NCBI GenBank assembly: GCA_049517335.1
Contig: JBEKSD010000001.1
Location: forward strand, 160,032-224,031
Direction: 5' to 3'
Source of the DNA: Candidatus Omnitrophota bacterium
GTDB lineage: Bacteria > Omnitrophota > Gorgyraeia > Gygaellales > Profunditerraquicolaceae
Length of the DNA: 64,000 nucleotides
The notes under the pieces are model-generated. The model was not told the origin of the DNA. It was given only the letters and a program-made list of their open reading frames with translations, and did not search any database. Numbering within the stretch: position 1 is the stretch's first letter; each line of letters starts with the position of its first letter. The position numbers were made by a program, and so were the translations under genes. Shown one piece after another: positions 14,617-61,972 of the stretch.

Positions 14617-15054
14617 ATGTTTTACGGCGAATATCAACATTCCATAGACCGTAAAGGCCGTCTTATTCTACCCGCCAAATTCCGCGAGGGAGCCAAAGCA
14701 CATTTTATTGAGCGGTTCTTTGTAACGCGCGGACTGGATAAATGTTTGTTTATGCTTTCGGAAGAAGAGTGGCGCTCTCAAGAAAATAAACTTAAATCCA
14801 TGCCTTTTACCAGGCAGCAGTCCCGCATCTTTAACCGCCTTTATTTCTCAGGGGCAATAGAAGTGGTTCCGGATTCCCAAGGAAGAATCCTACTCCCGCA
14901 GAATTTAAAAGATTACGCCGAGATTAAAAGGGAAGTCGTTGTGGTGGGAGTTTCTAACAGGATTGAGATTTGGGCAAAGAACAAGTGGGATGAATTTTAT
15001 TCAAATTCGCGGGAATCCTATGAAGAGATTTCCGAGAAGCTGATGGAAATATAG
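14617..15054 (+). CDS. mraZ: Transcriptional regulator MraZ
   Basis: DRKGRLILPAKFR and DSQGRILLP duplicated motifs; first gene of the dcw cluster. Confidence 0.96.
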   Translation: MFYGEYQHSIDRKGRLILPAKFREGAKAHFIERFFVTRGLDKCLFMLSEEEWRSQENKLKSMPFTRQQSRIFNRLYFSGAIEVVPDSQGRILLPQNLKDYAEIKREVVVVGVSNRIEIWAKNKWDEFYSNSRESYEEISEKLMEI

Positions 15055-15059: not shown

Positions 15060-15959
15060 ATGGAAGTTAAATATCACGTTCCAGTAATGCTGGAAGAAGT
15101 AATAGATTATTTGAAGCTTCAGCCCGGGATGACGATAGTGGATGCAACAATGGGGACCGGCGGCCACAGTATGGCGGTTATGGAACGTATCATGCCGGGG
15201 GGACGGTTAATCGGGATTGACCGGGACAAAGAGTCGCTTGAGGTCTGTCGCCGTAGGTTCAAAGATTACAGCACGGCGTGCGAATTCGTACATGCTAACT
15301 TTATTGATTTAGACTTGGTATTAAAAAATATGAGCATTAATAAAATTGACGGCATACTTTTTGATTTAGGTATTTCTTCTTTTCAGTTAGCGGATGCGCA
15401 AAGGGGCTTTAGTTTTCAGAATGCCGGGCCGTTAGATATGCGCCTCGACAGGGAAAGCTATATTTCAGCCTATGACTTGGTAAATAACCTGAATGAAGAG
15501 GAAATTTCAGGGTTACTATGGGCATTCGGAGAAGAACGCTGGCACAATAGGATTGCCCATCTCCTGGTGCAGGAAAGGGAGAGGCAGCCCATTTCTACTA
15601 CGGAGCAATTGGCGAATATCGTCGAGCGGTCCATCCCATACAGGTACAGGCACAGATATTACCGTATTCACCCTGCGACCCGGACATTTCAGGCGGTGCG
15701 CATCGCCGTTAACAGGGAGCTGGAAATTTTAGAGGAAGCAATAAATAAGGCAATTGATTTTCTGCACGGAAGATGTAGGATATGCGTTATTTCGTTTCAT
15801 TCTTTGGAGGACAGGCAGGTAAAGCATGCATTCCGCAAAGCGGCATTTGACGGTTTGATAAATATAATAACTAACAAGCCGCTAACTCCCGGGATGGGTG
15901 AAATCCAGGCGAACCCTTCCAGCCGTAGTTCCAAGCTGAGGGTTGCAGAAAGATTATAA
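15060..15959 (+). CDS. rsmH: 16S rRNA m4C1402 methyltransferase
   Basis: HVPVM, DATMGTGGHS, DLGISSFQ, HPATRTFQA and SFHSLEDR. Confidence 0.97.
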   Translation: MEVKYHVPVMLEEVIDYLKLQPGMTIVDATMGTGGHSMAVMERIMPGGRLIGIDRDKESLEVCRRRFKDYSTACEFVHANFIDLDLVLKNMSINKIDGILFDLGISSFQLADAQRGFSFQNAGPLDMRLDRESYISAYDLVNNLNEEEISGLLWAFGEERWHNRIAHLLVQERERQPISTTEQLANIVERSIPYRYRHRYYRIHPATRTFQAVRIAVNRELEILEEAINKAIDFLHGRCRICVISFHSLEDRQVKHAFRKAAFDGLINIITNKPLTPGMGEIQANPSSRSSKLRVAERL

Positions 15960-15960
15960 G

Positions 15961-16332
15961 ATGATGAGAATATCCAGATTTGTCACGGTAGTCAGCTTCA
16001 TTACTTGTTTTTCCCTCCTTTACGTTTACCAACAATCTGAAATCTTCCGCCTCGCTTATGTAGGCCAAAAAAATCAGGTATCTTTTCAGGATTTACTTGA
16101 TAAGAACACCATTCTAAGATACAATATAGAAAGAAATGCCTCACTTATCTCTATCGGGAATAAGATCTCAAAGGAAAAAGATTTCCAGATGCCTGACAGT
16201 TACCGTCTGGTAAAGTTATCTCCGACAAAAGAAGGCTTTAGGATTAGTCCGGAAAGTCCCTCAAAGCAGACGCTTATAGCCAGGATTTTCGGGATAAGAA
16301 GCCAGGCTGAGGCAGAAATAATCAATCCATAA
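15961..16332 (+). CDS. ftsL: FtsL-like bitopic cell division protein
   Basis: Single N-terminal TM segment followed by a short coiled coil; canonical position between rsmH and ftsI. Confidence 0.55.
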   Translation: MMRISRFVTVVSFITCFSLLYVYQQSEIFRLAYVGQKNQVSFQDLLDKNTILRYNIERNASLISIGNKISKEKDFQMPDSYRLVKLSPTKEGFRISPESPSKQTLIARIFGIRSQAEAEIINP

Positions 16333-16382: not shown

Positions 16383-18113
16383 GTGTATATAAATAATTAT
16401 CGCCGTAGAAGCGAGGCGGTATTTTTATTTTTTCTCCTGTTGTTGTTAATTTTCATCCTGCGTCTTTTGTTCATCCAGTTTTTTCGCTCAAGCTACCTTT
16501 CCGCGATAGCCGATAAACAGCATAATTTATTCGTTGAGCTTGAACCCGTAAGGGGTACTATCTATGACTGCCGGCACCGGCCTCAAGGCATTAACCTACC
16601 TGCCGAATCCCTCTATGCGTCGCCCAATGAAATAAAAGATAATGACAAAGATGCGATTATAAAGAAACTTACCCCCTTATTTGAAGCCGATTACGCTTAC
16701 CTGAAAGAAAAGCTCGACAAAAAAAAGTCATTTGTATGGCTGTATCGTAAACTTACTCCCGAACAGTCGCTGGCGATTAAAAAATTGAATATCAAAGGGC
16801 TGGGGTTCATAAAAGAAAGCAGGCGTACTTACCCCAACAGTTACCTGGCCAGCCATGTTTTAGGTTTCGCCGGTCTTGATAATACCGGCCTGGAAGGAAC
16901 GGAACTTTACCGGGATAAATATTTAAAAGGGATAGCGGGCTGGGCAGTGTTTTTAAGGGATGCCCGCCAGAAACGGCTTGATTTGTGGCGCAAGATGGTC
17001 CTGCCGAGGGACGGGTTGAATTTAACATTGACTATTGATGAGGTAATCCAATATATCGCGGAAAGAGAACTGGATAAGGCATTCAGGGCTTATCACGCCA
17101 AAGGCGCAAGCATTATCGTGATGGACCCGCATACGGGAGCGATACTTGCGCTTGCCAACCGGCCTACCTATGATTTGAATAACCATTCTAATGTGAATAA
17201 GGATATGACCCGGGACCGCGCAATCTGCGATATGTTTGAACCGGGCTCGGTTTTTAAGATCGTTACCGCGTCTGCGGCTCTGGAAGAGAATAAAGTACGC
17301 GAGGAAGACAGGTTTTTTTGTGAAAATGGCGCTTATCGTTTCGGCGCTCATCTTTTGCATGACCACACCCCCCACGGCTGGCTCACCTTTAGGGAAGTTA
17401 TCGAACAATCCAGCAATATCGGGACGGTAAAAGTCGCTTTATTGCTTGGACCTGAGGTAGTTTACCGCTACGCGAAGCTATTCGGTTTCGGCACAAAAAC
17501 AGGCATTGATTTGCCTGGAGAAATTAACGGACTACTTAGGCCGGTACACCAATGGTCAAAAATGTCTATCAGTTCGGTCCCGATAGGGCAGGAAGTAGGC
17601 GTTACGGCAATACAACTTGCCGCGGCAATTTCAGTGATTGCCAACGGAGGGCAGTTAATGAAGCCCTACATTTTAGAGGAGGTCCGGGATAAAGAGGGGC
17701 AGCTCATTAAGCGCACCTCTCCTGTTTTGATGCATAAAGTAATTTCCGTTGATACGGCATCCCGGATGAAGAAGATGCTCACCGGGGTTGTGGAGGAAGG
17801 GACGGGCAAGCTGGCCAAACTTATTGGCTTTAGCGCCGCCGGGAAAACAGGTACCGCGCAGAAGCTAGAACCCAACGGAACATATTCGCACAATAAATTC
17901 GTAGCTACATTTATGGGTTTTGCCCCGGCGGAAGATCCGCTGGTAACGATAGTTGTTACCCTGGATGAGCCGTACCCGTATTACGGAGGCGTGGTCGCGG
18001 CCCCCGTATTTAAAAATGTCGCAGGAGACGTCATCAGGTACCTTAAAACGACTCAAAACCAACAGGCTCAAAGGTACATTTATACTTTAGATGAAATTAA
18101 CAAAGCTGATTAA
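16383..18113 (+). CDS. ftsI: Class B penicillin-binding protein FtsI/PBP3
   Basis: RGTIYD, RTYP, EPGSVFK (SxxK), SSN and KTGTAQ; dcw position. Confidence 0.92.
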   Translation: MYINNYRRRSEAVFLFFLLLLLIFILRLLFIQFFRSSYLSAIADKQHNLFVELEPVRGTIYDCRHRPQGINLPAESLYASPNEIKDNDKDAIIKKLTPLFEADYAYLKEKLDKKKSFVWLYRKLTPEQSLAIKKLNIKGLGFIKESRRTYPNSYLASHVLGFAGLDNTGLEGTELYRDKYLKGIAGWAVFLRDARQKRLDLWRKMVLPRDGLNLTLTIDEVIQYIAERELDKAFRAYHAKGASIIVMDPHTGAILALANRPTYDLNNHSNVNKDMTRDRAICDMFEPGSVFKIVTASAALEENKVREEDRFFCENGAYRFGAHLLHDHTPHGWLTFREVIEQSSNIGTVKVALLLGPEVVYRYAKLFGFGTKTGIDLPGEINGLLRPVHQWSKMSISSVPIGQEVGVTAIQLAAAISVIANGGQLMKPYILEEVRDKEGQLIKRTSPVLMHKVISVDTASRMKKMLTGVVEEGTGKLAKLIGFSAAGKTGTAQKLEPNGTYSHNKFVATFMGFAPAEDPLVTIVVTLDEPYPYYGGVVAAPVFKNVAGDVIRYLKTTQNQQAQRYIYTLDEINKAD

Positions 18114-23226: not shown

Positions 23227-24321
23227 ATGATCCGGAATATAAGGATAAATTTATTTACCGTTGTTTTTACGCTTATATGCATCGGCGTGGTGATGATTTA
23301 CAGCTCTTCCAGTATTTATGCTTGGGAAAGATATAAAGATAGTATGTTTTTTCTAAAGAGGCATATTATTTTCCTGAGCATAGGTGCGGTGTTGGCATTT
23401 TTTGCCATGACTTTTGATTACCGGCGCTTTAAGACGTACGCCAAGCCGCTGCTGATTGTTTCTTTTATTCTTCTTATTTTAGTTTTAATACCGGGTATCG
23501 GCAGGGAAGTTTCAGGCGCACGCAGATGGTTCAGGTTTAAGTTTTTGAGCTTCCAGCCTTCGGAGCTGGCTGTGCTGGCGGTAATTATTTATGTTGCGGA
23601 TTTCCTCTCCCGTAAAGGTAACAATATTAAACTTTTTTTCCGCGGTTTCCTGCCATCGGTTTGCGTGTTGGGCGTATGTGCTATGCTTATCTTGGTTCAG
23701 CCGGATTTGGGAACTACCCTTTCAATAAGCGTCGTAGTATTTTTAATGCTTTATATCGCAGGGACACGGGTGATTTACCTGTTTTCGATAATTCTGGCAA
23801 GCCTACCGGTTCTTTATATTCTAGTATTCAGTGTTCCTTACAGGAGGGCGCGTATCCTTAGTTTTCTAAATCCGTGGATAGATCCTAAGGGAAGCGGTTT
23901 TCAAATAATCCAGTCTCAAATTGCTATCGGTTCAGGAGGGTTTTTCGGCGTAGGGCTTGGGCATTCCAAACAGAAACTGTTTTATCTTCCCGCTGCGCAT
24001 ACGGATTTTATTTTTTCCATTATCGGCGAAGAGCTGGGCTTAATCGGCACATTAGGCATAATTATCCTGTTTGTTTTATTCATTCAGCAGGGCTTAAAGA
24101 TTGTAAAAAATGCTCCCGATAAATTTGGTTATTTCCTTTCTTTAGGCTTACTATTGATGCTAACCTTAAGAATCGTGATTAATATTGGAGTTTCCTGCGG
24201 TTTCTTTCCTACTAAAGGTTTGCCCCTTCCCTTTATAAGTTACGGAGGTTCTTCTTTTATTTTTGACATGGTTAGTGTAGGCATCCTCATTAATATTGCG
24301 CGAACCGGAGAATATCCATAG
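23227..24321 (+). CDS. ftsW: SEDS peptidoglycan polymerase FtsW
   Basis: GARRW, QPSE, QPDLG, HTDFIF..EELG and PFISYGGSS. Confidence 0.96.
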   Translation: MIRNIRINLFTVVFTLICIGVVMIYSSSSIYAWERYKDSMFFLKRHIIFLSIGAVLAFFAMTFDYRRFKTYAKPLLIVSFILLILVLIPGIGREVSGARRWFRFKFLSFQPSELAVLAVIIYVADFLSRKGNNIKLFFRGFLPSVCVLGVCAMLILVQPDLGTTLSISVVVFLMLYIAGTRVIYLFSIILASLPVLYILVFSVPYRRARILSFLNPWIDPKGSGFQIIQSQIAIGSGGFFGVGLGHSKQKLFYLPAAHTDFIFSIIGEELGLIGTLGIIILFVLFIQQGLKIVKNAPDKFGYFLSLGLLLMLTLRIVINIGVSCGFFPTKGLPLPFISYGGSSFIFDMVSVGILINIARTGEYP

Positions 24322-27542: not shown

Positions 27543-28389
27543 GCGTTCGGAGCCGTTAAATAAGCATACTACCTTCAGGCTAGGGGGTAGGGCGGATTTT
27601 TTTATAGAGCCCAAGGATAACCAAGACTTAAAATTGCTACTTAACTATGCTAAAATCCATAAGCTTAAACTTTTATTAATCGGCTCGGGCAGCAATATTT
27701 TAGCCAAAGACGGGAATATCAGGAAAATAATCGCTCATCTAAATTCAGGTTATTTTGCTAAAATTAAATTTGAAAATAATTATTGCGAAGCAGGAAGCGC
27801 AACTGTGCTTGCGCGATTAATAAAAGCAGCACATGCGCGTTCCTTAGCCGGATTGGAATTTTTAACCGGAGTGCCGGGAACAGTCGGTGGGGCGCTGGTA
27901 ATGAACGCCGGCGCATGGGGAAAAGAAATCGCCGATTTTTTGACAGAGGTAAAAGTTATGGATTATAACGGCAGGGTGAGGTTGATGAAAAAGGAAGAAA
28001 TTAAGTTCGGCTACCGTTCTTCCTCTTTGGATAAATATATAATTTTAGGAGCGAAGTTTAAATTAAGCAGGGATTCAGAAAAAAATATCGGGAATAGAAT
28101 AGCCGATTATTTAAAAAAGCGCCGCAGTAGCCAGGATAACGCGTTTCCCAATGCAGGATGTATTTTTAGGAACCCTCGGGGTACTTCGGCTGGAAAGCTA
28201 ATTGATTTGTGCGGTTTAAAAGGTAGGTGCGCGGGCGGTGCCGTTATTTCAAAGAAACACGCTAATTTTATCCTGAATCGGAAAAATGCCTCTGCGCAGG
28301 ACGTCTTGGAGCTTGTTAAATTAATCAAAAGGGAAGTCAGGAATAAATTCCGCATAAATCTGGAAACGGAAATAAAAATATGGCAGTGA
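27508..28389 (+). CDS. murB: UDP-N-acetylenolpyruvoylglucosamine reductase
   Basis: TTFRLGG, GSGSN, PGTVGGALVMNAGA, GCIFRNP and HANF. Confidence 0.96.
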   Translation: MNWWKSLKGKVKRSEPLNKHTTFRLGGRADFFIEPKDNQDLKLLLNYAKIHKLKLLLIGSGSNILAKDGNIRKIIAHLNSGYFAKIKFENNYCEAGSATVLARLIKAAHARSLAGLEFLTGVPGTVGGALVMNAGAWGKEIADFLTEVKVMDYNGRVRLMKKEEIKFGYRSSSLDKYIILGAKFKLSRDSEKNIGNRIADYLKKRRSSQDNAFPNAGCIFRNPRGTSAGKLIDLCGLKGRCAGGAVISKKHANFILNRKNASAQDVLELVKLIKREVRNKFRINLETEIKIWQ

Positions 28390-29342
28390 ACCCACGAACT
28401 ACGGATCAGTTCGGCCGCATCGGTATTTTAATGGGCGGCCCCTCTTCAGAGCGCGAGATTTCCTTAAAATCGGGAAAAGCGGTTTACGATGTGCTTTCTG
28501 CCTTGGGCGAAGACGTTGTCGCTATTGATATTAAGAGCGATGGCGTTGAGGAAAATATCCGCCTCATAAATTCCCAGGGAATAGATTGCGCTTTCCTGGC
28601 TTTGCACGGCCGCTTTGGCGAGGACGGAACAATTCAGATGATTTTAGAGAATATGAGAATCCCGTATACGGGCTCAGGAGTATTGGCGAGCAAACTTGCA
28701 ATGGATAAAGTTTCCTCACGGGAAATTTTTAAGAAAGCTAACTTGCTTGTCCCGCGCAGTAAAGTAGTGGATAAACAATCTTATAAGCAAGGTTCTTTCC
28801 TTAAACTTAATTTAGGAAGCCGCCTAGTAATAAAACCGGCGGCTCAGGGTTCAAGTATAGGTTTATCCATTATTGACAGGAAAGAAGATTTAGCTAAAGC
28901 ATTGGAACTTGCTTTTAAATTTGACGATAGACTTATCGTTGAAGAGTATATTAAAGGCAGGGAAATGACCGTGGGGATACTGGAGGAATCAGCTTTACCG
29001 GTTATTGAGATAATCCCGAGCCGCGCGTTTTTTGATTTTGAGGCCAAATACAAGGATGGGTTGACTGAATACGTTATTCCCGCCGGAATTGACAAAAAAA
29101 CCGCTGCCAGGATTCAGGCTTCAGCTTTGTCCGCGCATAAGTTGCTGGGTTGTTTTGGCTATTCAAGGGTGGATTTGATCCTTCATGAAGAAGGCGATAT
29201 CTTCGTTCTGGAAGTAAATACCATACCTGGAATGACCTCAACCAGCCTGCTGCCGAAAGCAGCCGGAAAGATACACATTAAATTTGAAGAGTTATGCATG
29301 AGGTTAATAAAATTAGCTTATGAAAAAGCAGAAAAATACTAA
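28380..29342 (+). CDS. ddl: D-alanine--D-alanine ligase
   Basis: GGPSSEREISLKSG, LHGRFGEDG, GSSIG and LEVNTIPG. Confidence 0.97.
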   Translation: MAVNPRTTDQFGRIGILMGGPSSEREISLKSGKAVYDVLSALGEDVVAIDIKSDGVEENIRLINSQGIDCAFLALHGRFGEDGTIQMILENMRIPYTGSGVLASKLAMDKVSSREIFKKANLLVPRSKVVDKQSYKQGSFLKLNLGSRLVIKPAAQGSSIGLSIIDRKEDLAKALELAFKFDDRLIVEEYIKGREMTVGILEESALPVIEIIPSRAFFDFEAKYKDGLTEYVIPAGIDKKTAARIQASALSAHKLLGCFGYSRVDLILHEEGDIFVLEVNTIPGMTSTSLLPKAAGKIHIKFEELCMRLIKLAYEKAEKY

Positions 29343-30087
29343 TTTTCTGGGTTTGTTTGTTTTTGTAACTTTAATTCTTCTTGCTATCTTTATTTTTCTG
29401 GGATATATTTGGAATGTTGTTAAACATTCGGATATCTTTACGGTCAGGGAAGTAGTGGTGAAAGGTTCAGCAACAGGCAGCCTTTCTTATTTGAAAGGCA
29501 GGAATATATTTGACATTGATTCAAGAAGAGAATTCCGGGATGCCCTAAGGTCGTACCCGGATTACAGCTGCATCAAATTGGTAAAAATATTTCCTAGCCG
29601 CATATTTGTGGAATTTATCGGGCGTAAACCGGTTGCCTTAATAAAATTATACCGTTATTTTGCCGTTGATGAATCCGGCACCATATTTTACACTCAGGGT
29701 TCTCTGCCTGATGAACCCGGTTTACCGGTAATAACCGGCTTAGAGACAAAGCTCTTCGGGCCTAAACCGGGGGTAAGGTATAATATTAAGGAATTGGGCC
29801 TTGCTTTGGAAATCCTGCGGCAGGCAAAGAGGACGCATCTTTTGAAATATTACAAGATCCGTAAAATAGACGTTTACAACCCGGATAATGCTTCCATATT
29901 TATCCCGTTCGCTGATAATACAAGGAGAGATCTTGAGGTTAAGCTCGGCTCGAATAATATTACGGATAAGATCTCTATTCTCGCTGGTTTAATCATTAAC
30001 GGGAAGAACGACATATCCGGCATAAAATATATTGACTTAAGATTCAATGAACCGGTAATAAAATTAAACGATGTTAAATCAGAATAG
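29320..30087 (+). CDS. ftsQ: Cell division protein FtsQ/DivIB
   Basis: N-terminal TM, POTRA-like region, LPVITG and C-terminal YIDLRF; canonical position. Confidence 0.85.
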   Translation: MKKQKNTNFLGLFVFVTLILLAIFIFLGYIWNVVKHSDIFTVREVVVKGSATGSLSYLKGRNIFDIDSRREFRDALRSYPDYSCIKLVKIFPSRIFVEFIGRKPVALIKLYRYFAVDESGTIFYTQGSLPDEPGLPVITGLETKLFGPKPGVRYNIKELGLALEILRQAKRTHLLKYYKIRKIDVYNPDNASIFIPFADNTRRDLEVKLGSNNITDKISILAGLIINGKNDISGIKYIDLRFNEPVIKLNDVKSE

Positions 30088-31330
30088 TTACATCTGCGCG
30101 CTTGATATCGGCTCAAGTAAAATATCCGTAACCTTTGCGCAAATTAAAAAGAAGCGGTTAAGCAGCCTTGAATTTGTAACCGTTCCGTCTAAAGGCGTCA
30201 GGGGAGGAGTTATTGTTGATTCAATTGAGTTGGTCGGCGCTATCAGCAAGCTGATGAAAACCCTGAAAGCCAGGTCTGGCGTCAATATCAAGAATATTTA
30301 CGCTAATATTTCGGGACAGGATATTGTTACCAAGCGCAGCCACGCAATAATCCCTTTGGCCGAGAGAGGGAATAAAGTCATCACCCAATCGGATATTGAA
30401 GCCGCAAATGAACAGGCGCGTATACTCGGTTCAAGCCTTGAAGAAGAAATTATACAGATTATTCCTTCAAGCTATACTATTGATTCCAAGGATAATATCA
30501 TAAACCCATTCGGGCTCTACAGCCATAAGCTGGAAGTGGATTTATACCTTATCTGCGGGAGACTTTCATCCATCCAGAGCCTTGCGAGAGTAATCCATCA
30601 GTCCGGTTATGAAATCAAGGATTTATTCTTCTCAGGCCTGGCCACAAGTAAAGCCGTGTTCAACAAAGAGCTAAGTGAGGGGCTGAATTTATTTTGCGAT
30701 ATCGGAAGCGATATTGTTGAATTATTGGTCTTTAAAGACGGACTTCTCAAGGATATGGAAATTATGTCTTTTGGAGGGGATGATTTGACGCAAAAGTTAA
30801 GTGATGAGCTTAAGATTCCCTTTGACTTAGCTGAAGATATAAAAAGATCCTACGGCATTATCGGGGATATAGAACAGATAGAAGAGAACAAGGAGATTTT
30901 AGTAAAAAAGAGCGAGCTTTATAAGCCGATAAAACAGAAACTCGTTTCTCAGATTATTACTCTAAGCGCAAAAGATATCTGCTCAAAGATAAAAGACGCA
31001 GTTGTCAGGAAAGTTGCGCCCCATGAAGTAAATAATTTCATAATTACCGGGCGCACCCTGCTTTTGGAAGGTTTTATTGAAACCCTGGAAAATACCCTTT
31101 CTATGCCCGTAAAGCTGGGCCGCATCAGGAATGAAGAGGTCCTCGCCCTTGCAAAAGAAGACGACGCTCTATCCGGGCAGAAATACCTGAATTATCTCAC
31201 CTCGCTCGGTATGATCTGCGAGGTCTTACAAAGAAAGCCTATTTCAATGCAACCCCTTCATCAGCCCGCCAAAAACCTCCTTACTAAGGTCAAGAACAAG
31301 CTTACAGAGGTATATCAGGAATATTTTTAA
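30071..31330 (+). CDS. ftsA: Cell division protein FtsA (divergent)
   Basis: ALDIGSSKI, SKGVRGGVIVD, NPFGL..LEV, AEDIKRSYG and a C-terminal amphipathic helix; follows ftsQ. Confidence 0.9.
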   Translation: MLNQNSYICALDIGSSKISVTFAQIKKKRLSSLEFVTVPSKGVRGGVIVDSIELVGAISKLMKTLKARSGVNIKNIYANISGQDIVTKRSHAIIPLAERGNKVITQSDIEAANEQARILGSSLEEEIIQIIPSSYTIDSKDNIINPFGLYSHKLEVDLYLICGRLSSIQSLARVIHQSGYEIKDLFFSGLATSKAVFNKELSEGLNLFCDIGSDIVELLVFKDGLLKDMEIMSFGGDDLTQKLSDELKIPFDLAEDIKRSYGIIGDIEQIEENKEILVKKSELYKPIKQKLVSQIITLSAKDICSKIKDAVVRKVAPHEVNNFIITGRTLLLEGFIETLENTLSMPVKLGRIRNEEVLALAKEDDALSGQKYLNYLTSLGMICEVLQRKPISMQPLHQPAKNLLTKVKNKLTEVYQEYF

Positions 31331-31344
31331 TTCATCTTTAAGGT

Positions 31345-31372
31345 TTGACCACTCAGTATTCTTGTGTATAAT
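31345..31372 (+). promoter_or_regulatory. Putative promoter of the yggS operon
   Basis: TTGACC, 16 bp spacer, TATAAT within the 73-bp ftsA-yggS gap. Confidence 0.55.
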
Positions 31373-31403
31373 ATATTAACTTAAAATTTGCTTAAGTAAG
31401 CTT

Positions 31404-32096
31404 ATGATTAAGGATAATATAGGTAAGGTAAGAGAGCGTATTGCTGCTGTTTGCAGCAGGATTGGCAGAAAACCGGAAAACATCACTATCGTAGCCATAA
31501 GTAAGGCTAGGCCGGTAGAAGAGATAAAAGAAGTAGTTGAGTCCGGGATTTGCGATATAGGTGAAAACAGGGTCCAGGAAGCTTTTTTGAAATATCACGC
31601 TTTACAGTATGCGATAAGCGGTAAGCTTATAAGGTGGCATATGGTCGGGCATCTTCAGACCAATAAGGTAAAAGATGCGGTTAAGATTTTTGATTTAATC
31701 CAGTCGGTGGACAGCCTGCATCTGGCGCAGGAAATTGATAAGCAGGCGGCAAAAATCAATAAACTGCAGGACGTGCTGGTTGAAATAAAAACTTCCCCCG
31801 AGGAAAACAAGTCCGGGATGAGCCCGCGCGCTGCCGTGGTTGTGATAAACGAAATAGTAAAACTGAAAAACGTAAAGATAAAAGGCCTGATGACCATCGC
31901 TGCCGTAGTCGATGAGGCGCAAAAGGCACGGGAGTATTTTAAAGAATTGAGAGAGTTTAAAGAGAAGATAGACAGTTTTCATCTGGAATCCTGTGATATG
32001 CGTTTTTTGTCCATGGGCATGACCGATGATTATGAAGTGGCAATAGAAGAGGGCTCAAATATGCTGCGTATTGGGCGCGGCATATTCGGAGAATAA
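31404..32096 (+). CDS. yggS: Pyridoxal phosphate homeostasis protein YggS/PLPBP
   Basis: AISK, GENRVQE, WHMVGHLQTNK, LSMGMTDDY and RIGRGIFG. Confidence 0.96.
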   Translation: MIKDNIGKVRERIAAVCSRIGRKPENITIVAISKARPVEEIKEVVESGICDIGENRVQEAFLKYHALQYAISGKLIRWHMVGHLQTNKVKDAVKIFDLIQSVDSLHLAQEIDKQAAKINKLQDVLVEIKTSPEENKSGMSPRAAVVVINEIVKLKNVKIKGLMTIAAVVDEAQKAREYFKELREFKEKIDSFHLESCDMRFLSMGMTDDYEVAIEEGSNMLRIGRGIFGE

Positions 32097-32103
32097 TAAA
32101 AAT

Positions 32104-32946
32104 ATGTTAACTTTTTGGCCTAAAAAAATAGTCGGGATAATTGGTTATGGTAATATGGGTTCAGCTATCGCCGAAAGGATAAAGACAAAATATCAGGTAC
32201 TAGTTTTTGACAAAGATGCAGAGAAGACAAGGAATCTTAAAAACGTAAAGGTATTTGACAATATTTTGGACCTCGCAGAAAAAGCCGATATCTTGATTTT
32301 AGCGGTAAAGCCACAGGATTTTGATACGTTACTAAAAGACATTAAGGAGAATATAGATAATAAATTGATTATTTCAATTGCTGCCGGTATTTCTACAAGG
32401 TATATTGAAAACATCTTAGGTACGGCAAGGGTTATCAGGGTAATGCCGAATATAGGGGCAATTGCCGGTAAAGCTACTTCTTGTCTTTGTAAGGGGAATC
32501 TTGCAAGCATGAAAGATTTAAAGTTTTCAGAAAGATTATTTAGAGGAATCGGTAAAACTTCGATAATTTCGGAAGATAAAATGCCTGTGGCGACAGCGGT
32601 CTCCGGTAGCGGTCCGGGATTTTATGCCGATAAGCGAGAGTCTAATTCCGAGGATTACAATCGCAATCCGCAAAAATTCTTAAAAGATTTCATAGTTTCT
32701 TTAGCCCGGGGAGGGGAAAAAGAAGGCCTTACTAAAAAAGAAGCTGAATTTCTAGCAAGCACTACTGGTGTAGCATCCGAGTATCTTATAGTCAAAATAA
32801 AAATTCCTCCTCTGAAATTAAAGCAGCAAGTTGCTTCTAAGGGTGGTACTACTGAAGCTGGATTAGCTGTATTGCATAGTGGAGGTTCGGTGGAGGACGC
32901 CGTAAAAGCAGCAAAGGCACAAGCGGAGAAATTATCGAAAGGATAA
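32104..32946 (+). CDS. proC: Pyrroline-5-carboxylate reductase
   Basis: GYGNMG, LAVKPQ, SIAAG, RVMPN, SGSGP and VASKGGTT. Confidence 0.92.
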   Translation: MLTFWPKKIVGIIGYGNMGSAIAERIKTKYQVLVFDKDAEKTRNLKNVKVFDNILDLAEKADILILAVKPQDFDTLLKDIKENIDNKLIISIAAGISTRYIENILGTARVIRVMPNIGAIAGKATSCLCKGNLASMKDLKFSERLFRGIGKTSIISEDKMPVATAVSGSGPGFYADKRESNSEDYNRNPQKFLKDFIVSLARGGEKEGLTKKEAEFLASTTGVASEYLIVKIKIPPLKLKQQVASKGGTTEAGLAVLHSGGSVEDAVKAAKAQAEKLSKG

Positions 32947-33812: not shown

Positions 33813-36608
33813 ATGGATTACAAGAATACCCTTAATTTGCCTCAGACTAAATTCCCGATGAAGGCGGATCTACCCAGGCGGGAGCCGGTATTGTTAAAAT
33901 CATGGGAAGGAAGAGGAATTTATAAGCTCATCCTTTCTAAAAGTAAAGATAGGCCTAAATATATCCTGCATGACGGCCCGCCTTACGCAAACGGGGATAT
34001 CCATATAGGTCATGCTTTAAATAAAACCTTAAAAGATATTATCATCAAGTATAAGACAATGAAGGGATGCTATTCGCCGTATGTCCCGGGCTGGGATTGC
34101 CATGGCCTGCCTATTGAGCATGCCCTTTTTAAAGAATTAAAAATAAACAAACAAGAGATACCTCAGATAGATTTCAGGAAAAAAGCTTATGGATATGCAA
34201 TGAAATACGTAGAGAACCAGAAAGTCCAGTTTAAAAGACTCGGTGTTTTTGGCGATTGGGAGAATCCTTATTTGACATTAAGCCGCGAATATGAAGAAGC
34301 GATAGTTGCGTCATTTAACGAATTGTTCAAGAAGGGCTATATTTACAGGGGGTTTAAGCCGGTTAACTGGTGCTTCAGGTGCGAGACAGCGCTGGCAGAA
34401 GCAGAAGTAGAGTACGAAGATCATACTTCGCCTTCCGTTTACGTTAAATTTAAATTGGAAGAGGGTAAGGATTTCGGCAAAGACAGTTTTCTGGTCATCT
34501 GGACCACTACGCCGTGGACTTTACTTGCTAATGTTGCCGTTAGCGTGCACCCGGATTTAATCTATTCTTACGTTGAAACTGAAAAAGGCAACCTCATTAT
34601 TGCTGGGGAGCTTCTTGAAAAATCTGTTTCCGATATGGGGCTTGAAAAAATTAAAATTATAAAGGAATTTCAGGGGAACAAATTAGAAGGCCTGATTTAT
34701 ACGCATCCATTCGGACTAAGAAAAGGTAGAGTCGTTCTGGCGGATTATGTTTCAAAGGAGGAAGGAACCGGCCTTGTGCATACCGCTCCCGGGCATGGGC
34801 TTGAGGATTATCAAACCGGCTTGAGGTATAAGTTAGATATAATCATGCCGGTTGACGCAAAGGGAAGATTTGATCCTACGGTTGAGGAATTTAGCGGGAT
34901 GAATGTTTATGACGCAAATAAAGTTATTATTGAGAAGCTGCAGAAAATAGGCGCCCTTCTTTTTGAATCAAAAGTTTCTCACTCATACCCGCATTGCTGG
35001 CGTTGTAAAAACCCGATAATATTCCGGGCTACCAAACAATGGTTTTTGTCTATAGATAAAGACAGCTTGCGGGATAAGCTTATCCGCGCGATAGAAGAGG
35101 ATGTAACATGGGTTCCGGCTTCAGGCAAAGACAGGATTTCTGCGATGGTGAAGTTACGGCCCGATTGGTGTCTTTCCCGCCAGCGCTATTGGGGGGTGCC
35201 GGTGCCGGCTTTAGTTTGCCTTGAGTGTAAAGAAGAATTTTTTACCCCTGAGGTGATAGAAAAATTTTCTCAGCTTGTAGCAAAAGAAGGCACGGATTGC
35301 TGGTTTACAAGAAAGATAGAAGATTTCTTGCCTCAAGGCTTAACCTGCCCTGTCTGCGGAAAAGGTAAAACGTTTTCCAAGGGCTCGGATATCCTTGATG
35401 TATGGTTTGACTCCGGAGTCAGCAGCCAGGCGGTATTAAAGAAAAGGAAAGAGCTAGGCGGAGTGCCTGCGGATTTATATCTGGAAGGCTCTGACCAACA
35501 CAGAGGGTGGTTCCAGTCTTCGCTTATTCTGGGTATGTGCATAGATAATGCTCCCTCTTTTAAGACAGTGCTGACGCACGGATTTGTGGTGGACGGGGAA
35601 GGCAGGAAGATGTCCAAGTCCTTAGGCAATGTAATTTCCCCTTTTGATATTATCAAAGATTACGGAGCGGATATTTTAAGGATGTGGGTAGCTTCAAGCG
35701 ACTATAACGAAGATATCCGTATCTCCAAAGAGATATTAACCCGGCTTTCCGAAGCATACCGCAAGATCAGGAATACCGCTAGATTTATCTTAAGTAACCT
35801 TTATGATTTTAATCCGGATACTGATAAAGTCAGTTATGAGAACCTTAGAAAGATAGATAAATGGATTCTATTCAGAATGGAATTCGTTTTAAACATTGTA
35901 ACTACTGCATATGGCACAGAAGCTAACCCTACTTTTGAATTCCATAAAGCATACAAAACTATTTATGATTTTTGCAATGAAGACCTTTCTATGTTTTACC
36001 TGGATACGGTAAAAGGCAGGCTTTATACTTATAGGGCGGACTCGTCAGAGAGACGTTCTGCCCAGACAGCTATTTATGAAGTATTGAATTGTTTGGTGCG
36101 GATGCTTGCGCCTATTCTCGTTTTTACTTCGGAAGAGATCTGGCAGATTATGCCTAAAGAAAGCAAAGATAAAGAAACCGGCAGTATTCATATTGCGTCT
36201 TTCCCCATAAAAAATTCTGTCTTCGCGCAAGATAATGCCAAGGTTAATATAGATGAAGAGTTAAAACCGGGAATTGAATTAAGACAAGAGGTGGCAAAAA
36301 AAATAGAAGAATTGCGCGGGAAAGGCGCCATAGGAAGTTCTTTTGACGCCAAAATAAATCTATTGACAAATGACCCCGCTCGGTATACATTTTTAGAAAG
36401 CTTAAAAAGCGATCTTTGCGAGATTTTCAAGGTTTCACAGGTTGAAGTCAGAAATGCCGCTAATGTAACTGAGTTTACGGTGGAGGCAGTTAACGCGCAG
36501 GGGAAAAAATGCGTGCGCTGCTGGAATTATTCCTCTGCCGTGGGTAGCGATAAAACCCACAGCGGGCTCTGCGATAACTGTTTGAAGGCAATAGGAGAAG
36601 AAAAATAG
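33813..36608 (+). CDS. ileS: Isoleucine--tRNA ligase (type 1)
   Basis: HIGH, GWDCHGLP, WCLSRQRYWG, EGSDQHRGWF, KMSKS and C-terminal CxRCW zinc motif. Confidence 0.98.
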   Translation: MDYKNTLNLPQTKFPMKADLPRREPVLLKSWEGRGIYKLILSKSKDRPKYILHDGPPYANGDIHIGHALNKTLKDIIIKYKTMKGCYSPYVPGWDCHGLPIEHALFKELKINKQEIPQIDFRKKAYGYAMKYVENQKVQFKRLGVFGDWENPYLTLSREYEEAIVASFNELFKKGYIYRGFKPVNWCFRCETALAEAEVEYEDHTSPSVYVKFKLEEGKDFGKDSFLVIWTTTPWTLLANVAVSVHPDLIYSYVETEKGNLIIAGELLEKSVSDMGLEKIKIIKEFQGNKLEGLIYTHPFGLRKGRVVLADYVSKEEGTGLVHTAPGHGLEDYQTGLRYKLDIIMPVDAKGRFDPTVEEFSGMNVYDANKVIIEKLQKIGALLFESKVSHSYPHCWRCKNPIIFRATKQWFLSIDKDSLRDKLIRAIEEDVTWVPASGKDRISAMVKLRPDWCLSRQRYWGVPVPALVCLECKEEFFTPEVIEKFSQLVAKEGTDCWFTRKIEDFLPQGLTCPVCGKGKTFSKGSDILDVWFDSGVSSQAVLKKRKELGGVPADLYLEGSDQHRGWFQSSLILGMCIDNAPSFKTVLTHGFVVDGEGRKMSKSLGNVISPFDIIKDYGADILRMWVASSDYNEDIRISKEILTRLSEAYRKIRNTARFILSNLYDFNPDTDKVSYENLRKIDKWILFRMEFVLNIVTTAYGTEANPTFEFHKAYKTIYDFCNEDLSMFYLDTVKGRLYTYRADSSERRSAQTAIYEVLNCLVRMLAPILVFTSEEIWQIMPKESKDKETGSIHIASFPIKNSVFAQDNAKVNIDEELKPGIELRQEVAKKIEELRGKGAIGSSFDAKINLLTNDPARYTFLESLKSDLCEIFKVSQVEVRNAANVTEFTVEAVNAQGKKCVRCWNYSSAVGSDKTHSGLCDNCLKAIGEEK

Positions 36609-41650: not shown

Positions 41651-42724
41651 ATGATTAATTTCAGGAAAATCGCTAAAAATACCGCTGATTACATCCATGG
41701 GCTCCTTTCCAATGATATAGGTATTGATTTGGGGACAGCCTCTACTTTGGTTTATGTGAAAGGGGAAGGCATTGTTATTTGTGAACCTTCGGTAGTAGCT
41801 ATTGAAAGAGGCACTACCCATGTTTTGGCAGTAGGTAGCGAAGCTAAACGTATGCTTGGCCGCACCCCCGGCAATATCGTAGCTATCAGACCGATGAAAG
41901 ACGGGGTTATCACGGATTTTGAGATAACCGAAGCCATGCTCAGGTACTTTATCAGAAAGGTCCGCCGCGGCCGTTTCCAGTTAAACCCCCGTATTGTCAT
42001 TGCTATACCTTCCGGCATCACGGAAGTTGAGAGGCGCGCGGTAAAGGAATCTGCCGAGCGTGCAGGGGGAAGGGAAGTATTCTTGATTGAAGAGCCTATT
42101 GCCGCTGCAATTGGGGTAGGGCTGCCGATACAGGAACCTTTGGGTAATATGATTATTGATGTTGGAGGCGGGACAACGGAAATTGCCGTCATATCTTTAG
42201 CCGGGACAGTATTCTCTAAGTCTATCAGGATAGGCGGCGATGAGATGGATGAGGCGATTGTAGAATACTTAAAGAAAACTTATAACCTGATGGTCGGCGA
42301 ACGTACCTCCGAAGAAATAAAAATAAAGATCGGTTCGGCTTATCCGTTAGAAGAAGAGATGAGCCTTGAGGTCAAGGGCAGAGATTTAGTTGCGGGCCTA
42401 CCCAAGACGGTTACTATTACTTCCGAAGAAATACGCGAAGCATTGCAAGAACCTGTACACGCGATAGTAGAAGCTACAAAGATTTCCCTAGAAAGGACGC
42501 CGCCGGAATTATCTTCAGACCTGATTGAACACGGCATTGTCATGGCCGGAGGCGGTTCCCTCTTAAGGGGCCTGGATAAACTCATTTCCGAAGAAACGGG
42601 TTTACCGGTGCATGTTGCTGACGATCCTCTGACTGCCGTTGCCAAAGGCACAGGCAAGGTTTTGGATGAAATACATTATCTAAAGAAACTTACCGTTCCC
42701 ATCAAAAGCGAAGTTCAACCTTAG
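41651..42724 (+). CDS. mreB: Rod shape-determining actin MreB
   Basis: [32 protein letters not shown] and AGGGSLL. Confidence 0.98.
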
Positions 42725-42742
42725 TTGATTTAGCAAACAGAT

Positions 42743-43516
42743 GTGCTTAATCTTAAAAACAAAAATTTAATTTTCTATTTTCTTGTCGGTTTATCGGTTT
42801 TATTCGCCGCAGGTTCAGTTTCCGTATTAAAAAACCCCGTCCTTGACTTTTCAAAATTCCCTTCCATAGCGGTTAGCGCAGTCCGTCGCGAGTTTATGGG
42901 TATCATTTTTTATCACCGGAATTATGTCCAGAATGAACATTTGCGCAACGAAGCGGATTTCTTTAGGCAGAAAGTAAATTCTCTTAATGAAATAGATCTG
43001 GAAAACCTACGCCTTAGGAAGCTCCTATCTTTTAAACAGGAGCTTCCTTTTAAGGTAATAGCCGCCAGGGTTATAGCCCGTTCGCCGGACAACTGGTATT
43101 CGGTGATTATTATAGATAAAGGCTCATCAGGCGGCGTCCAGCGGGGGCAGGCGGTTATAAATAATTTCGGGCTTATCGGCCGCGTAATGGATACCACTGC
43201 TTTTACGAGTAAGGTCATGTTAATCAGCGACCCTAATTTGAGCGTATCCGCTATTGTTGAACGCAGCCGCGAGGTGGGGCTTATTACCGGCACCCTCGGA
43301 ACGCAATTGCTCATGAAATATCTTCCGCAGGATGCGGATATAAAAGCACAGGATAAAATTATTACCTCCGGAATGAATCGGAATTACCCTAAAGGCCTCC
43401 CAATCGGGAACGTGGTTGAAGTCGGCAATGAGTTTTCCAGCCTCGGACGCTATGCGGTTATCAAACCTGCGGTAAACCTTTCTTTTCTGGAAGAAGTTTT
43501 TGTGATTGTAAAATGA
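42743..43516 (+). CDS. mreC: MreC
   Basis: TM segment, ENLRLRKLL, IIDKGS and TSG..YPKGLPIG. Confidence 0.93.
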   Translation: MLNLKNKNLIFYFLVGLSVLFAAGSVSVLKNPVLDFSKFPSIAVSAVRREFMGIIFYHRNYVQNEHLRNEADFFRQKVNSLNEIDLENLRLRKLLSFKQELPFKVIAARVIARSPDNWYSVIIIDKGSSGGVQRGQAVINNFGLIGRVMDTTAFTSKVMLISDPNLSVSAIVERSREVGLITGTLGTQLLMKYLPQDADIKAQDKIITSGMNRNYPKGLPIGNVVEVGNEFSSLGRYAVIKPAVNLSFLEEVFVIVK

Positions 43517-44001
43517 AAAAGGCAAACTTCTGCGTAATTTTGGCCGGCTGCGCGATAATACAGGTTACGCTTTTAAATTACCTGAAAGTTTTTACGGTCG
43601 GGCCGGATTTGCTTTTGATTTGTACCGTAATAGCCTCGCTTGTTTTCCCTTTGAAATGGGCTTTATTTTTTTGCCTGTCGGCAGGAGTTTTTAAGGATGC
43701 CTTTGGCGCAGGCGTTTTCGGTATAAATACCGCTTTATTTCCTCTTTGGGGTTTTTTGATTATTAAACTTACGCGAAAGATAGCAATTGATAATAATATA
43801 ATGAGGGTATTGTTAATCGCTGTCGTAACACTGGTGCATAACCTGCTGACAGGCATAATATTTATGTATTACGGAACCAATCTCCCTTTTGGTATATTAT
43901 TTCGCATATTATTGCTATCGCCACTTTTGGCAGCTATTTTTTCCCTTCCCATGCTTAAATTCTTTAAGAAACTTCCCCAGGTTCACTATGAACAAGACTA
44001 A
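43513..44001 (+). CDS. mreD: MreD
   Basis: Polytopic membrane protein with PDLLLI and G.FKD; follows mreC. Confidence 0.85.
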   Translation: MKKANFCVILAGCAIIQVTLLNYLKVFTVGPDLLLICTVIASLVFPLKWALFFCLSAGVFKDAFGAGVFGINTALFPLWGFLIIKLTRKIAIDNNIMRVLLIAVVTLVHNLLTGIIFMYYGTNLPFGILFRILLLSPLLAAIFSLPMLKFFKKLPQVHYEQD

Positions 44002-45700
44002 AATTGTAAATATAATTGTGGTTTTGATGTTTTTATTACTAGGTCTGGCACTTTTTAACACAGAAGTAATTCAAGGCAGGAAGTACAGAGATTTAAGCAA
44101 TAAAAATTGTATCAGGTTAATCCCCCAGATGGGCAGCCGCGGGAAAATCCTTGACCGTAACGGCCAAGTTTTAGTTGACAACAAGATATCTTACGATGTC
44201 CTTATCGCTCCTGAAGACCCGTTCCAACAGGAAAAAATCTTGCAGGCCGTAAGAAGCGTATTAAAACTAAGCCTTGAAGATTTAGAAAAGGCTTATAGGG
44301 GAAATTTTATTTCTGTTTCAGTACCTACCCTTGTTGCCCGGAATATTGGCTTAAAGAATGCAATTGCCCTCGAGGAAATCAAAGTTGACCAGCCGGGGAT
44401 TATTATTATGCCGCGGCCGGTGAGGAATTATCCTTTTGGGAATTTAGCCGCGCATGTTATGGGATATTTAGGTGAGATTGACCGCTGGCGCCTGACCAAG
44501 CTTTCGGATTACGGTTATAAGACTAAAGATAAAGTCGGATTCGGAGGGGTAGAAGAAAAATATGATTATTATTTGCGGCAGGAGGAAGGAGGGGTCTCGC
44601 TTGAAGTAGACCACCGGGGAAGGCTTACGCGTGTTTTGGGGTATCTTCCTCCTAAGAACGGGTTGGATATCCAGTTGACTCTGGATTTAAAGATAGAAAA
44701 AATCTCAGAGGCCGCCCTTTCCGGATTAAAGGGCTGCGTTGTCATTATGGATCCATATACTGGAGAAATCATTTCTATGGCCAGTTTTCCTGTTTTCTAC
44801 CCTGGTGATTTTATTGAGTCCGGAAAGTCTCTGTCTGCTTATTTTACTGATCCTGATGCCCCGTTGGTCAACCGCGCAATAAGTTCAAGTTTTCCGCCGG
44901 CTTCGGTTTTTAAGGTGGTTGTCGCAACTGCAGCGCTTGAGACAAAAAAAATTAATACATCCACTACTTTCGTTTGTTCGGGAAGTACGCTTATCGGAAA
45001 AAGGAAATTCAACTGCTGGAGTATTCACGGTCCGGTAAACCTGAATCAGGCTATAATCCATTCCTGCGACGTATTTTTTTACCGCACAGGTTTATTAGTC
45101 GGAGCGCAGGTTATACATGATTATGCGCTAAAGTTCGGATTAGGGAAACCTTCGGGGTTTGAGCTCCCTTACGAAGCGGGAGGCTTTGTCCCTTCTCCTT
45201 TATGGAGGAAAATAAATAAATTCAAAAACTGGTTTGACGGGGATACGGCTAATTTAGCAATCGGGCAGGGCGATTGTCTTATTACTCCTTTACAAATGGC
45301 AAGGATGATCTGCGTCTTTGCTAATAAAGGTTATCTTGTAACGCCTTACATTGTCAAGGCAATAGGCGGCAGGGATATTTCAAGGTACCAGAAGAGGATA
45401 ACTCCGCTTTCCTTAAAGGCATCAACAATCAATAATATCAGGGAGGGCTTAAGAGGCGTTGTTAGCAGCGCAGACGGAACCGCCAGTACTTTATCGGTTT
45501 TACCTGTTGAGATTGCCGGAAAGACCGGCACGGCCCAGGCGTCTCCAAAGCAGCCTCATGGCTGGTTTGTGGGGTTCTTTCCTTATAAAGAGCCTAGATA
45601 TGTTATTTGCGTGTTTCTGGAGCACGGCGGCTCAGGGTATGCAGCTTCCGTGGTGGCAGAGGATATAATCAAAGGGATGCACAAAGAAGGCTTATTGTAA
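43988..45700 (+). CDS. mrdA: Penicillin-binding protein 2 (ATG at 43988 inferred)
   Basis: RGKILDRNG, RNYP, PPASVFK, SCD and KTGTAQ. Confidence 0.95.
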   Translation: MNKTKIVNIIVVLMFLLLGLALFNTEVIQGRKYRDLSNKNCIRLIPQMGSRGKILDRNGQVLVDNKISYDVLIAPEDPFQQEKILQAVRSVLKLSLEDLEKAYRGNFISVSVPTLVARNIGLKNAIALEEIKVDQPGIIIMPRPVRNYPFGNLAAHVMGYLGEIDRWRLTKLSDYGYKTKDKVGFGGVEEKYDYYLRQEEGGVSLEVDHRGRLTRVLGYLPPKNGLDIQLTLDLKIEKISEAALSGLKGCVVIMDPYTGEIISMASFPVFYPGDFIESGKSLSAYFTDPDAPLVNRAISSSFPPASVFKVVVATAALETKKINTSTTFVCSGSTLIGKRKFNCWSIHGPVNLNQAIIHSCDVFFYRTGLLVGAQVIHDYALKFGLGKPSGFELPYEAGGFVPSPLWRKINKFKNWFDGDTANLAIGQGDCLITPLQMARMICVFANKGYLVTPYIVKAIGGRDISRYQKRITPLSLKASTINNIREGLRGVVSSADGTASTLSVLPVEIAGKTGTAQASPKQPHGWFVGFFPYKEPRYVICVFLEHGGSGYAASVVAEDIIKGMHKEGLL

Positions 45701-45705
45701 CCGCC

Positions 45706-46809
45706 ATGCATAAATCAGCTTTATACATTTTATTTATTGCGTTGCTTATCGTTTCAATAGGGATTATATCAATTTACAGCAGCACTTATCAAAAAGAAGG
45801 CAAGCCCTGGCAGGACATATACAAACGCCAGATTCTATGGATCATTATAGGAGCAGTATTTTTCGTGCTTTTGTCAAACCTGCATTATCGCCGGCTCTGG
45901 GATTGGACTTATCCGTTATATATTGTGGCGTTGTTTTTATTGTTGCTGGTTTTTGTATCCGGCGTGGTGCGCCTGGGTGCTCAGCGTTGGTTAAAGATAG
46001 CCTGGTTTAATTTTCAGCCTTCGGAATTTGCGAAGTTAATTCTTGCCATATTCCTTGCGCGTTATTTCAGCAGAAAATCGGTTGACGACGTATCGGTATT
46101 AAGCAAGAGGTTCGGAATATTCCGCGGGATAATCCTTCCGTTTATCTTTGTTTCTATCCCTATTTTTTTCATCATTGAACAGCCTGATTTGGGCAGCGGC
46201 ATGATTTTACTGCTTTTATTCGTAACCTTTTTATACCTGACTGGAGTAAAGATGCGTTATGTCATAATATTTATCTTTGTCATGGCTTTACCGTTGCCCT
46301 TTATATGGCATTTATTAAGGGATTACCAGAAACAAAGGCTGCTCGTATTTTTAGACCCTAATATAGATCCGCTCGGTGCGGGCTATACCGTAATTCAGTC
46401 AAAAATTGCGGTTGGCTCGGGTTGGTTGTGGGGGAAAGGCTGGCTTTCAGGAACGCAAAGCCAGCTGCATTTCTTACCTGAGTCGCATACGGATTTTATT
46501 TTTGCTACCTTTGCCGAAGAGTGGGGTTTCTTAGGCAGCGCTCTTTTACTGCTTCTGTATTATTTGTTAATACACCGCGGTTTTATGATTGCCAAAAGGA
46601 CGAATGACCCGTTCGGTAAATTGCTTGCTTTCGGGATTTCTCTTATGTTTTCCATTCAGGTCTTCATTAATATTGCCATGAATATGGGATTAGCGCCCGT
46701 AGTGGGCGTGCCTTTGCCGCTAATGAGTTACGGTGGTTCTTCTATTCTGGTCACTTTTATTGCTTTGGGAATCCTGGCGAATATAGATAAGACAAGAGGT
46801 GTGTTTTAA
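45706..46809 (+). CDS. rodA: SEDS polymerase RodA (ATG at 45706 inferred)
   Basis: GAQRW, QPSEFAK, QPDLG, PESHTDFIF and SYGGSS; follows mrdA. Confidence 0.95.
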   Translation: MHKSALYILFIALLIVSIGIISIYSSTYQKEGKPWQDIYKRQILWIIIGAVFFVLLSNLHYRRLWDWTYPLYIVALFLLLLVFVSGVVRLGAQRWLKIAWFNFQPSEFAKLILAIFLARYFSRKSVDDVSVLSKRFGIFRGIILPFIFVSIPIFFIIEQPDLGSGMILLLLFVTFLYLTGVKMRYVIIFIFVMALPLPFIWHLLRDYQKQRLLVFLDPNIDPLGAGYTVIQSKIAVGSGWLWGKGWLSGTQSQLHFLPESHTDFIFATFAEEWGFLGSALLLLLYYLLIHRGFMIAKRTNDPFGKLLAFGISLMFSIQVFINIAMNMGLAPVVGVPLPLMSYGGSSILVTFIALGILANIDKTRGVF

Positions 46810-56666: not shown

Positions 56667-58250
<1,584 letters not shown>

Positions 58251-58402
58251 AAAAACTTTTCACGGAGTTTTTTTGGAGCTTGGCTATTTCAATTTTTTTC
58301 TAAGGGAGCTACTCTTTAACAATTGAGAGGGCTTCTGATTTATTGTGTATTAGAGTGTAATGAATCAGGGCATTACACAATGTAAATTAGCACTCTAAAT
58401 TC

Positions 58403-58479: not shown

Positions 58480-58484
58480 TTATT

Positions 58485-61967: not shown

Positions 61968-61972
61968 TAAAT

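Follow-up and report, generated by a model that had tools for sequence, protein, structure and literature searches.

Division without FtsZ is known from two phyla related to the Planctomycetes-Verrucomicrobia-Chlamydiae (PVC) lineages. In Chlamydiota, which retain peptidoglycan synthases as well as FtsQ, FtsK and MreB, it is based on MreB, RodZ and FtsK; Chlamydiae are reported, in passages of two papers (PMC8178401, PMC12283558), to lack FtsA. FtsZ has likewise been lost in Planctomycetota, and a passage of PMC12673574 states that in Planctomycetes ftsB is lost in all species, ftsA in most and mur genes in many. The gene considered here is ftsA of a Candidatus Omnitrophota bacterium, which ends the division and cell wall (dcw) cluster in a 64,000-nucleotide stretch of contig JBEKSD010000001.1 (the window), within a 1.45-Mb genome of 31 contigs that is 92% complete. 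In contrast to Chlamydiae, Omnitrophota keep FtsA, in a dcw cluster that is intact and contiguous, and unlike Planctomycetes the source genome keeps FtsB, FtsA and a full set of mur genes.

A single published remark on the absence of FtsZ in Omnitrophica stands in the legend of a figure from 2021, and a published passage implies, without discussing it, that FtsA occurs there without FtsZ. A passage of a 2025 paper (PMC12283558) places Omnitrophota among the phyla in which the dcw genes show high conservation, and the text of the main Omnitrophota genomics paper (PMC10066038) does not contain the words Fts, divisome or MreB. No publication analysing Omnitrophota FtsA, or a natural FtsA devoid of subdomain 2B, was found in the main texts searched.

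The analysis supports, with a probability of about 0.72, the loss of FtsZ across the phylum together with the retention of FtsA under selection, the FtsZ-binding pocket of its subdomain 2B having decayed and FtsA serving in the divisome independently of FtsZ.

Searches for FtsZ in the source genome and in the phylum

Genes of the window were assigned from the list of open reading frames (ORFs), Pfam scans and some NCBIfam (TIGR) models. They reproduce the gene order given by an earlier inspection of the letters of the window (the sequence-only reading): the cluster runs from mraZ to ftsQ-ftsA and is followed, after a 73-bp gap that bears a candidate promoter (from the end of ftsA at 31330 to the start of yggS at 31404), by yggS, proC, a phosphorylase gene and ileS, with no ftsZ. 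By comparison, ftsZ lies right after ftsA in 39 of 40 proteobacterial loci. The gene adjoining ftsA downstream varies between Omnitrophota lineages (proC, yggS or a radical-SAM gene), and in the lineages examined no conserved gene takes the place of ftsZ.

The whole-genome search for FtsZ was negative. The Pfam models Tubulin (PF00091) and FtsZ_C (PF12327) have no match in the source genome, and the Tubulin model was positive in 13 of 14 control genomes. A phmmer --max search of 8537 six-frame ORFs of the source genome with E. coli FtsZ (from NC_000913.3) gave a best E-value of 0.018, for a 1651-residue ORF, and tblastn with E. coli FtsZ returned nothing from this genome; as a control, FtsA of the same E. 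coli genome recovers the ftsA of the window at 1.8e-26. Profile searches found no FtsZ in 41 genomes, including relatives of the same family and order.

In an even sample of 401 Omnitrophota genomes, of which 341 reach a completeness of 90% or more, 399 lack any tubulin-family match. The two remaining matches were considered as FtsZ candidates and rejected: they score 45–49 bits on the Tubulin model, compared to about 177 bits for true FtsZ, they also match TubZ-like_C and Tubulin_2, they have a Lys-rich N-terminal tail and they are encoded outside the dcw cluster. The only tubulins of the sample are thus TubZ-like, and nothing beyond a low-complexity match resembles them in the source genome. 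Division without FtsZ, which the sequence-only reading had proposed for this organism, is therefore supported by the non-detection of FtsZ, on a wider scale than was then supposed.

FtsA and its subdomain 2B

By its score, its predicted fold and its position, the protein of the window is a true FtsA. It exceeds the equivalog cut-off of TIGR01174 (200.3 versus 175.85 bits), and the SHS2 domain that forms subdomain 1C is inserted in its actin fold (PF02491, 54.2 bits, residues 82–161). The predicted model (predicted local distance difference test, pLDDT, 87.4) shows the full fold with 1C, 2B and a C-terminal helix; its best Foldseek matches are the FtsA structures 7q6i, 7q6f and 7q6d, with template modelling scores (TMt) of 0.86–0.88, and PilM and MreB score lower. 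The fold is that of canonical FtsA from E. coli (7q6d), Vibrio (7q6f, 7q6i), S. aureus (3wqu) and T. maritima (4a2a), with TMt of 0.81–0.88, and the SHS2/1C insert, a predicted C-terminal helix and the position of the gene behind ftsQ, as the last of the dcw cluster, are also shared. Unlike canonical FtsA, the Omnitrophota protein has no FtsZ partner and has D242, R300 and E303 (E. coli numbering) replaced; the clade of the window carries in addition a G-to-R change in the adenosine motif, and some sister lineages lack 2B entirely.

Omnitrophota FtsA is by these profiles nearly universal, yet it is unusually divergent. At E<=1e-25, TIGR01174 finds a match in 143 of 151 genomes of a sample and in 120 of the 125 high-quality ones. 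The Pfam model PF14450 matches all 401 genomes, which overstates the presence of FtsA because this model also scores MreB (44.8 bits) and PilM-like paralogues. Two such FtsA/PilM-like paralogues, at sampled loci L012:2061-3206 (+) and L026:302-1429 (−), have YIGT in place of DIGT and are encoded immediately before a T2SSE-type ATPase gene; these loci are probably pilus or secretion modules. Both were removed from the counts below, as was the protein of L028, which shares their YIGT motif and aligns partly.

In E. coli, residues 234–245 and 294–304 of FtsA form the predicted binding site of the FtsZ tail, in agreement with a genetic screen, according to a passage of PMC10769210. These positions were compared between 35 dcw-type Omnitrophota FtsAs (the window protein, seven members of its clade and 27 from other lineages) and 40 FtsAs from Pseudomonadota, 39 of which have ftsZ immediately downstream. 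Arginine 300 is present in 40/40 Pseudomonadota sequences but in 1/35 from Omnitrophota, where it is mostly replaced by glutamate (12) or serine (8). The same holds for D242 (40/40 versus 0/28), E303 (40/40 versus 7/35), E298 (39/40 versus 14/35) and P299 (39/40 versus 15/35). The window protein has K242 and, aligned with R300, S299. The segment 294–304 is the second-highest 11-residue stretch of the protein for gain in entropy.

A second, independent set, made up of 84 full-length proteins homologous to another Omnitrophota FtsA and grouped by C-terminal tail after one 227-residue protein (P0198) had been dropped, gives the same picture. All 74 members without an Omnitrophota-type tail have both D242 and R300; the named ones come from Nitrospirota, Gracilibacteria, Proteobacteria and one unclassified bacterium. 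The ten with such a tail have neither residue. The E-x-R motif is also present in the S. aureus FtsA chain of the PDB. These alignments show that the FtsZ-tail pocket of Omnitrophota FtsA is eroded or deleted. The loss of the FtsZ-binding site proposed from the single sequence thus holds against FtsZ-linked FtsAs.

In other Omnitrophota the subdomain is missing altogether. In 30 of the 151 genomes (counted from the match table) the TIGR01174 match breaks off around model position 230, in ORFs of 334–386 residues, which suggests a deletion of 2B in roughly a fifth of the sample. Ten of these short forms were retrieved. All ten align end to end with the window FtsA except for the stretch corresponding to E. 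coli residues ~241–296, and they retain 1C, the GG adenosine motif, a tail ending in YF and the reading frame. In all five that were tested SHS2_FTSA is present and the gene comes right after ftsQ, and the model of one (pLDDT 84.4) is closest to FtsA, with a lower target coverage. The boundaries of the deletion differ by group, and short forms occur both in the class of the window and in another class, which suggests that 2B was deleted more than once. These proteins resemble the engineered E. coli FtsA without 2B, in which FtsZ binding is abolished and cells filament, as described in part of PMC4281207; unlike that construct, the Omnitrophota forms carry a natural deletion that has become fixed, and they come from organisms that have no FtsZ.

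The sequence-only reading had also described the ATP motifs of FtsA as lost, and its residues were read correctly: D210-IGSDI, G327-R328 and S299 align with DIGGGT, TGG and R300 of E. coli. The phosphate-1 motif (DIGS) is kept, and the loss of phosphate-2 was over-read, since DIGSDIVE resembles the DIGEDVTQ of S. aureus FtsA, which is in the PDB with ATP and AMPPNP (3wqu, 3wqt). Phosphate-2 variants also occur outside Omnitrophota in FtsAs that keep R300 and D242, and DIGSD is therefore not evidence for lost ATP binding. The change from TGG to TGR is real, being present in 120/120 close homologues. However, none of the 27 FtsAs from elsewhere in Omnitrophota shares it, all having GG, so that this change is later and specific to the clade and does not track the loss of FtsZ.

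The remainder of FtsA is well conserved. The 120 best homologues, 64–92% identical to the window protein, all come from Candidatus Omnitrophota or Omnitrophica where they are named. Within this close clade conservation is highest in 1C (0.862), and 2B is among the lowest (0.761). The C-terminal helix, which the sequence-only reading saw as kept, is predicted at residues 403–418 behind a disordered linker, with the tail LLTKVKNKLTEVYQEYF. The last five residues, YQEYF (31313–31327), are found in 118 of the 120 close homologues, and the Omnitrophota FtsAs examined end in [ED][EQ]YF, while those of other phyla end differently. This exceeds what a plain membrane-targeting helix needs, and YQEYF may be a binding motif. 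No FtsA ORF has an internal stop among all the matches listed. From this conservation, the state in which FtsA is kept without FtsZ is taken to be old, phylum-wide, stable and under selection. The idea that it is an intermediate stage of FtsZ loss is thus not supported.

The dcw region and other division genes

The dcw cluster is contiguous on the + strand, in the order mraZ, rsmH, the ORF in the ftsL position, ftsI, murE, murF, mraY, murD, ftsW, murG, the Peptidase_MA_2 gene, murC, the ORF in the murB position, ddl, ftsQ and ftsA. An elongasome operon, mreB-mreC-mreD-pbp2-rodA, lies 10 kb from ftsA (41651–46809), as had been noted. Features are listed below.

Coordinates of the features discussed (window positions unless a sampled locus or genome is named)
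Feature	Position	Strand	Basis or remark
mraZ, first dcw gene	14617..15054	+	Pfam MraZ, 135.5 bits
rsmH (mraW)	15060..15959	+	Pfam Methyltransf_5, 340 bits
129-residue membrane protein, ftsL position	15943..16332	+	no Pfam/NCBIfam family; one N-terminal hydrophobic stretch; FtsL-like by position only
ftsI (class B penicillin-binding protein, PBP)	16383..18113	+	Pfam Transpeptidase, 263 bits, and PBP_dimer
ftsW	23227..24321	+	Pfam FTSW_RODA_SPOVE, 378 bits
murG	start 24338	+	dcw gene by Pfam scan
Peptidase_MA_2 (zinc metallopeptidase) gene	25405-26178	+	inside dcw, between murG and murC
murC	start 26175	+	dcw gene by Pfam scan
ORF in murB position	27508-28389	+	placed by position only
ddl	28380..29342	+	Pfam Dala_Dala_lig_C, 179 bits
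ftsQ	29320..30087	+	Pfam FtsQ_DivIB_C, 27.6 bits (cut-off 21); 17-nt overlap with ftsA
ftsA, 419 residues	30071..31330	+	TIGR01174, 200.3 bits; Pfam FtsA and SHS2_FTSA
Candidate sigma-70-like promoter, ftsA-yggS gap	31345..31372	+	TTGACC-16-TATAAT, 11/12; consensus match only
yggS (ylmE-type pyridoxal phosphate protein)	31404..32096	+	at the usual ftsZ place after ftsA; TIGR00044, 201 bits; Pfam Ala_racemase_N
proC	32071..32946	+	Pfam F420_oxidored and P5CR_dimer
PNP_UDP_1 (purine/uridine-phosphorylase-family) gene	between proC and ileS		Pfam
ileS	33813..36608	+	Pfam tRNA-synt_1, 462 bits
mreB	41651..42724	+	Pfam MreB_Mbl, 498 bits
mreC, mreD, pbp2, rodA (elongasome)	42743..46809	+	Pfam MreC, MreD, Transpeptidase and PBP_dimer, FTSW_RODA_SPOVE
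Bactofilin, single-copy in source genome	G000:C2:32162-32455
TubZ-like tubulin, genome G422	L001:1012-2295	−
TubZ-like tubulin, genome G384	L002:1318-2517	+
2B-less dcw FtsAs, ~340-385 residues	L148-L157		genomes G044, G052, G091, G073, G059, G045, G075, G048, G127, G093

The source genome also carries FtsK, FtsB/DivIC and bactofilin, along with ftsQ, ftsW and ftsI. FtsQ and the protein in the ftsL position have cytoplasmic tails of only a few residues. Profile searches found neither ZapA nor MinC in any of 101 sampled Omnitrophota genomes, and in the source genome no SepF, no YggT and, for DivIVA, nothing but a sub-threshold match of 21 bits. PspA/IM30 was not found in the source genome. An FtsZ-based divisome therefore does not fit: FtsZ is missing, as are ZapA and MinC in the sample and SepF in the one genome searched. 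Nor does a Chlamydia-type divisome, as the source genome has MreB and FtsK but FtsA too.

Several other features of the window were recorded. A 288-residue protein (39343–40209, +) is encoded directly upstream of murA-mreBCD-pbp2-rodA. It has a membrane anchor at its N-terminus, a long coiled coil, a linker rich in Lys, Ala and Pro, and a small domain at its C-terminus; searches with it gave no family, only generic coiled-coil matches of the SMC/Rad50 type. A DksA/TraR-type zinc-finger gene (36608–36991, +) lies between ileS and lspA-lgt. The window also contains a flavin mononucleotide (FMN) riboswitch (1530–1695) and a complete rRNA operon (16S, two spacer tRNAs, 23S and 5S; 56667–61968), near the end of the contig.

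Explanations for FtsA without FtsZ

According to the favoured reading, ftsZ, ZapA and MinC (and, in the source genome, SepF) would have been lost before Omnitrophota diversified, the dcw cluster staying otherwise intact and FtsA being retained under selection. As there was no longer an FtsZ tail for it to hold, the 2B pocket would have decayed in every lineage examined, up to the deletion of 2B in some, and 1C, the actin core and the C-terminal helix with its YQEYF ending would have been kept. FtsA would then be a membrane-bound part of the divisome that may link to, or activate, FtsQ/L/B-FtsW/I via 1C. The division site would be placed and constricted through the synthesis of septal peptidoglycan, with MreB, FtsK or bactofilin as possible helpers. 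That FtsA is kept throughout the phylum without FtsZ, its docking site having decayed, points to a role in division that is independent of FtsZ. A stronger proposal, put forward as a tentative one, is that throughout the phylum a divisome devoid of tubulin has FtsA, an actin-family protein that lacks its FtsZ-binding subdomain in some lineages, as the main organiser of septal peptidoglycan synthesis on the cytoplasmic side.

Several points weigh against this reading. FtsZ was sought by profile searches, which a protein with the role of a tubulin but no detectable sequence similarity would escape. Eight of the 151 sampled genomes have no TIGR01174 match at E<=1e-25, and the curated cut-off of this model is passed by just 69 of them. 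The FtsAs of Omnitrophota are variable everywhere (mean column entropy 2.02, compared to 1.04), and they differ at about 45 further sites where Pseudomonadota show no variation, so that the pocket is not the sole region to have changed. The FtsZ-positive comparison set consists of one phylum (Pseudomonadota), the S. aureus chain and metagenome proteins, mostly unnamed, that are merely presumed to be FtsZ-positive. Lastly, the mechanism of division is inferred.

Division led by MreB as in Chlamydia, in which case MreB, with FtsK, would have assumed the organising role of FtsZ and FtsA would be a mere accessory adaptor or regulator, is possible, even if rather doubtful. Canonical MreB (~500 bits) occurs in 99 of 101 sampled genomes, the elongasome operon is close to ftsA, FtsK is present, and chlamydial MreB and FtsK are reported as organisers of FtsZ-less division (PMC7029139, PMC11975371). 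However, MreB by itself is ordinary in any bacterium that has an elongasome, and the Chlamydiae are those reported to lack FtsA, while in the sampled Omnitrophota FtsA is near-universal with a well-conserved 1C, which argues for a needed role. This explanation overlaps with the retention of FtsA for an FtsZ-independent role and does not exclude it.

An undetected substitute for FtsZ, either a highly divergent tubulin fold or an unrelated filament, which FtsA would tether through a surface other than 2B, is improbable. Such a protein could be beyond the reach of sequence profiles; bactofilin is found in 55 of 61 sampled genomes, the membrane-anchored coiled-coil protein of no known family is encoded beside murA-mreB, and the C-terminal conservation of FtsA is more than a membrane helix requires. 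Against this, the sensitivity of the tubulin search is fair, because it recovered TubZ-like proteins of 45 bits in Omnitrophota; no conserved gene occupies the place of ftsZ, and bactofilin is missing from 5 of 55 high-quality genomes.

That FtsA is a relic, decaying towards eventual loss, is very unlikely. The relaxed phosphate-2 and 2B motifs would agree with decay, as would the genomes that fail the equivalog cut-off or have no strong match, but the ORFs listed are free of internal stops, 1C is strongly conserved, the 120 close homologues have G327-R328 and the tail fixed, and even the 2B-less forms retain their frame, 1C and tail. That ftsZ is missing merely through incomplete metagenome bins is scarcely credible, even with a source genome that is 92% complete in 31 contigs, given that ftsA and yggS are contiguous where 39 of 40 proteobacterial loci have ftsZ, and that the genomes without a match include single-contig ones (G182, G188, G383 of the sample).

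The retention of FtsA for a role of its own would be, among the PVC-related lineages, a third type of state without FtsZ. In the usual description FtsA tethers the FtsZ ring to the membrane, and here a whole phylum has long kept it without FtsZ. The Omnitrophota thus offer a natural separation-of-function experiment, which suggests that the FtsZ-independent role of FtsA resides in 1C, the actin core and the C-terminal tail. If true, a divisome centred on FtsA would reveal an FtsZ-independent core function of this protein.

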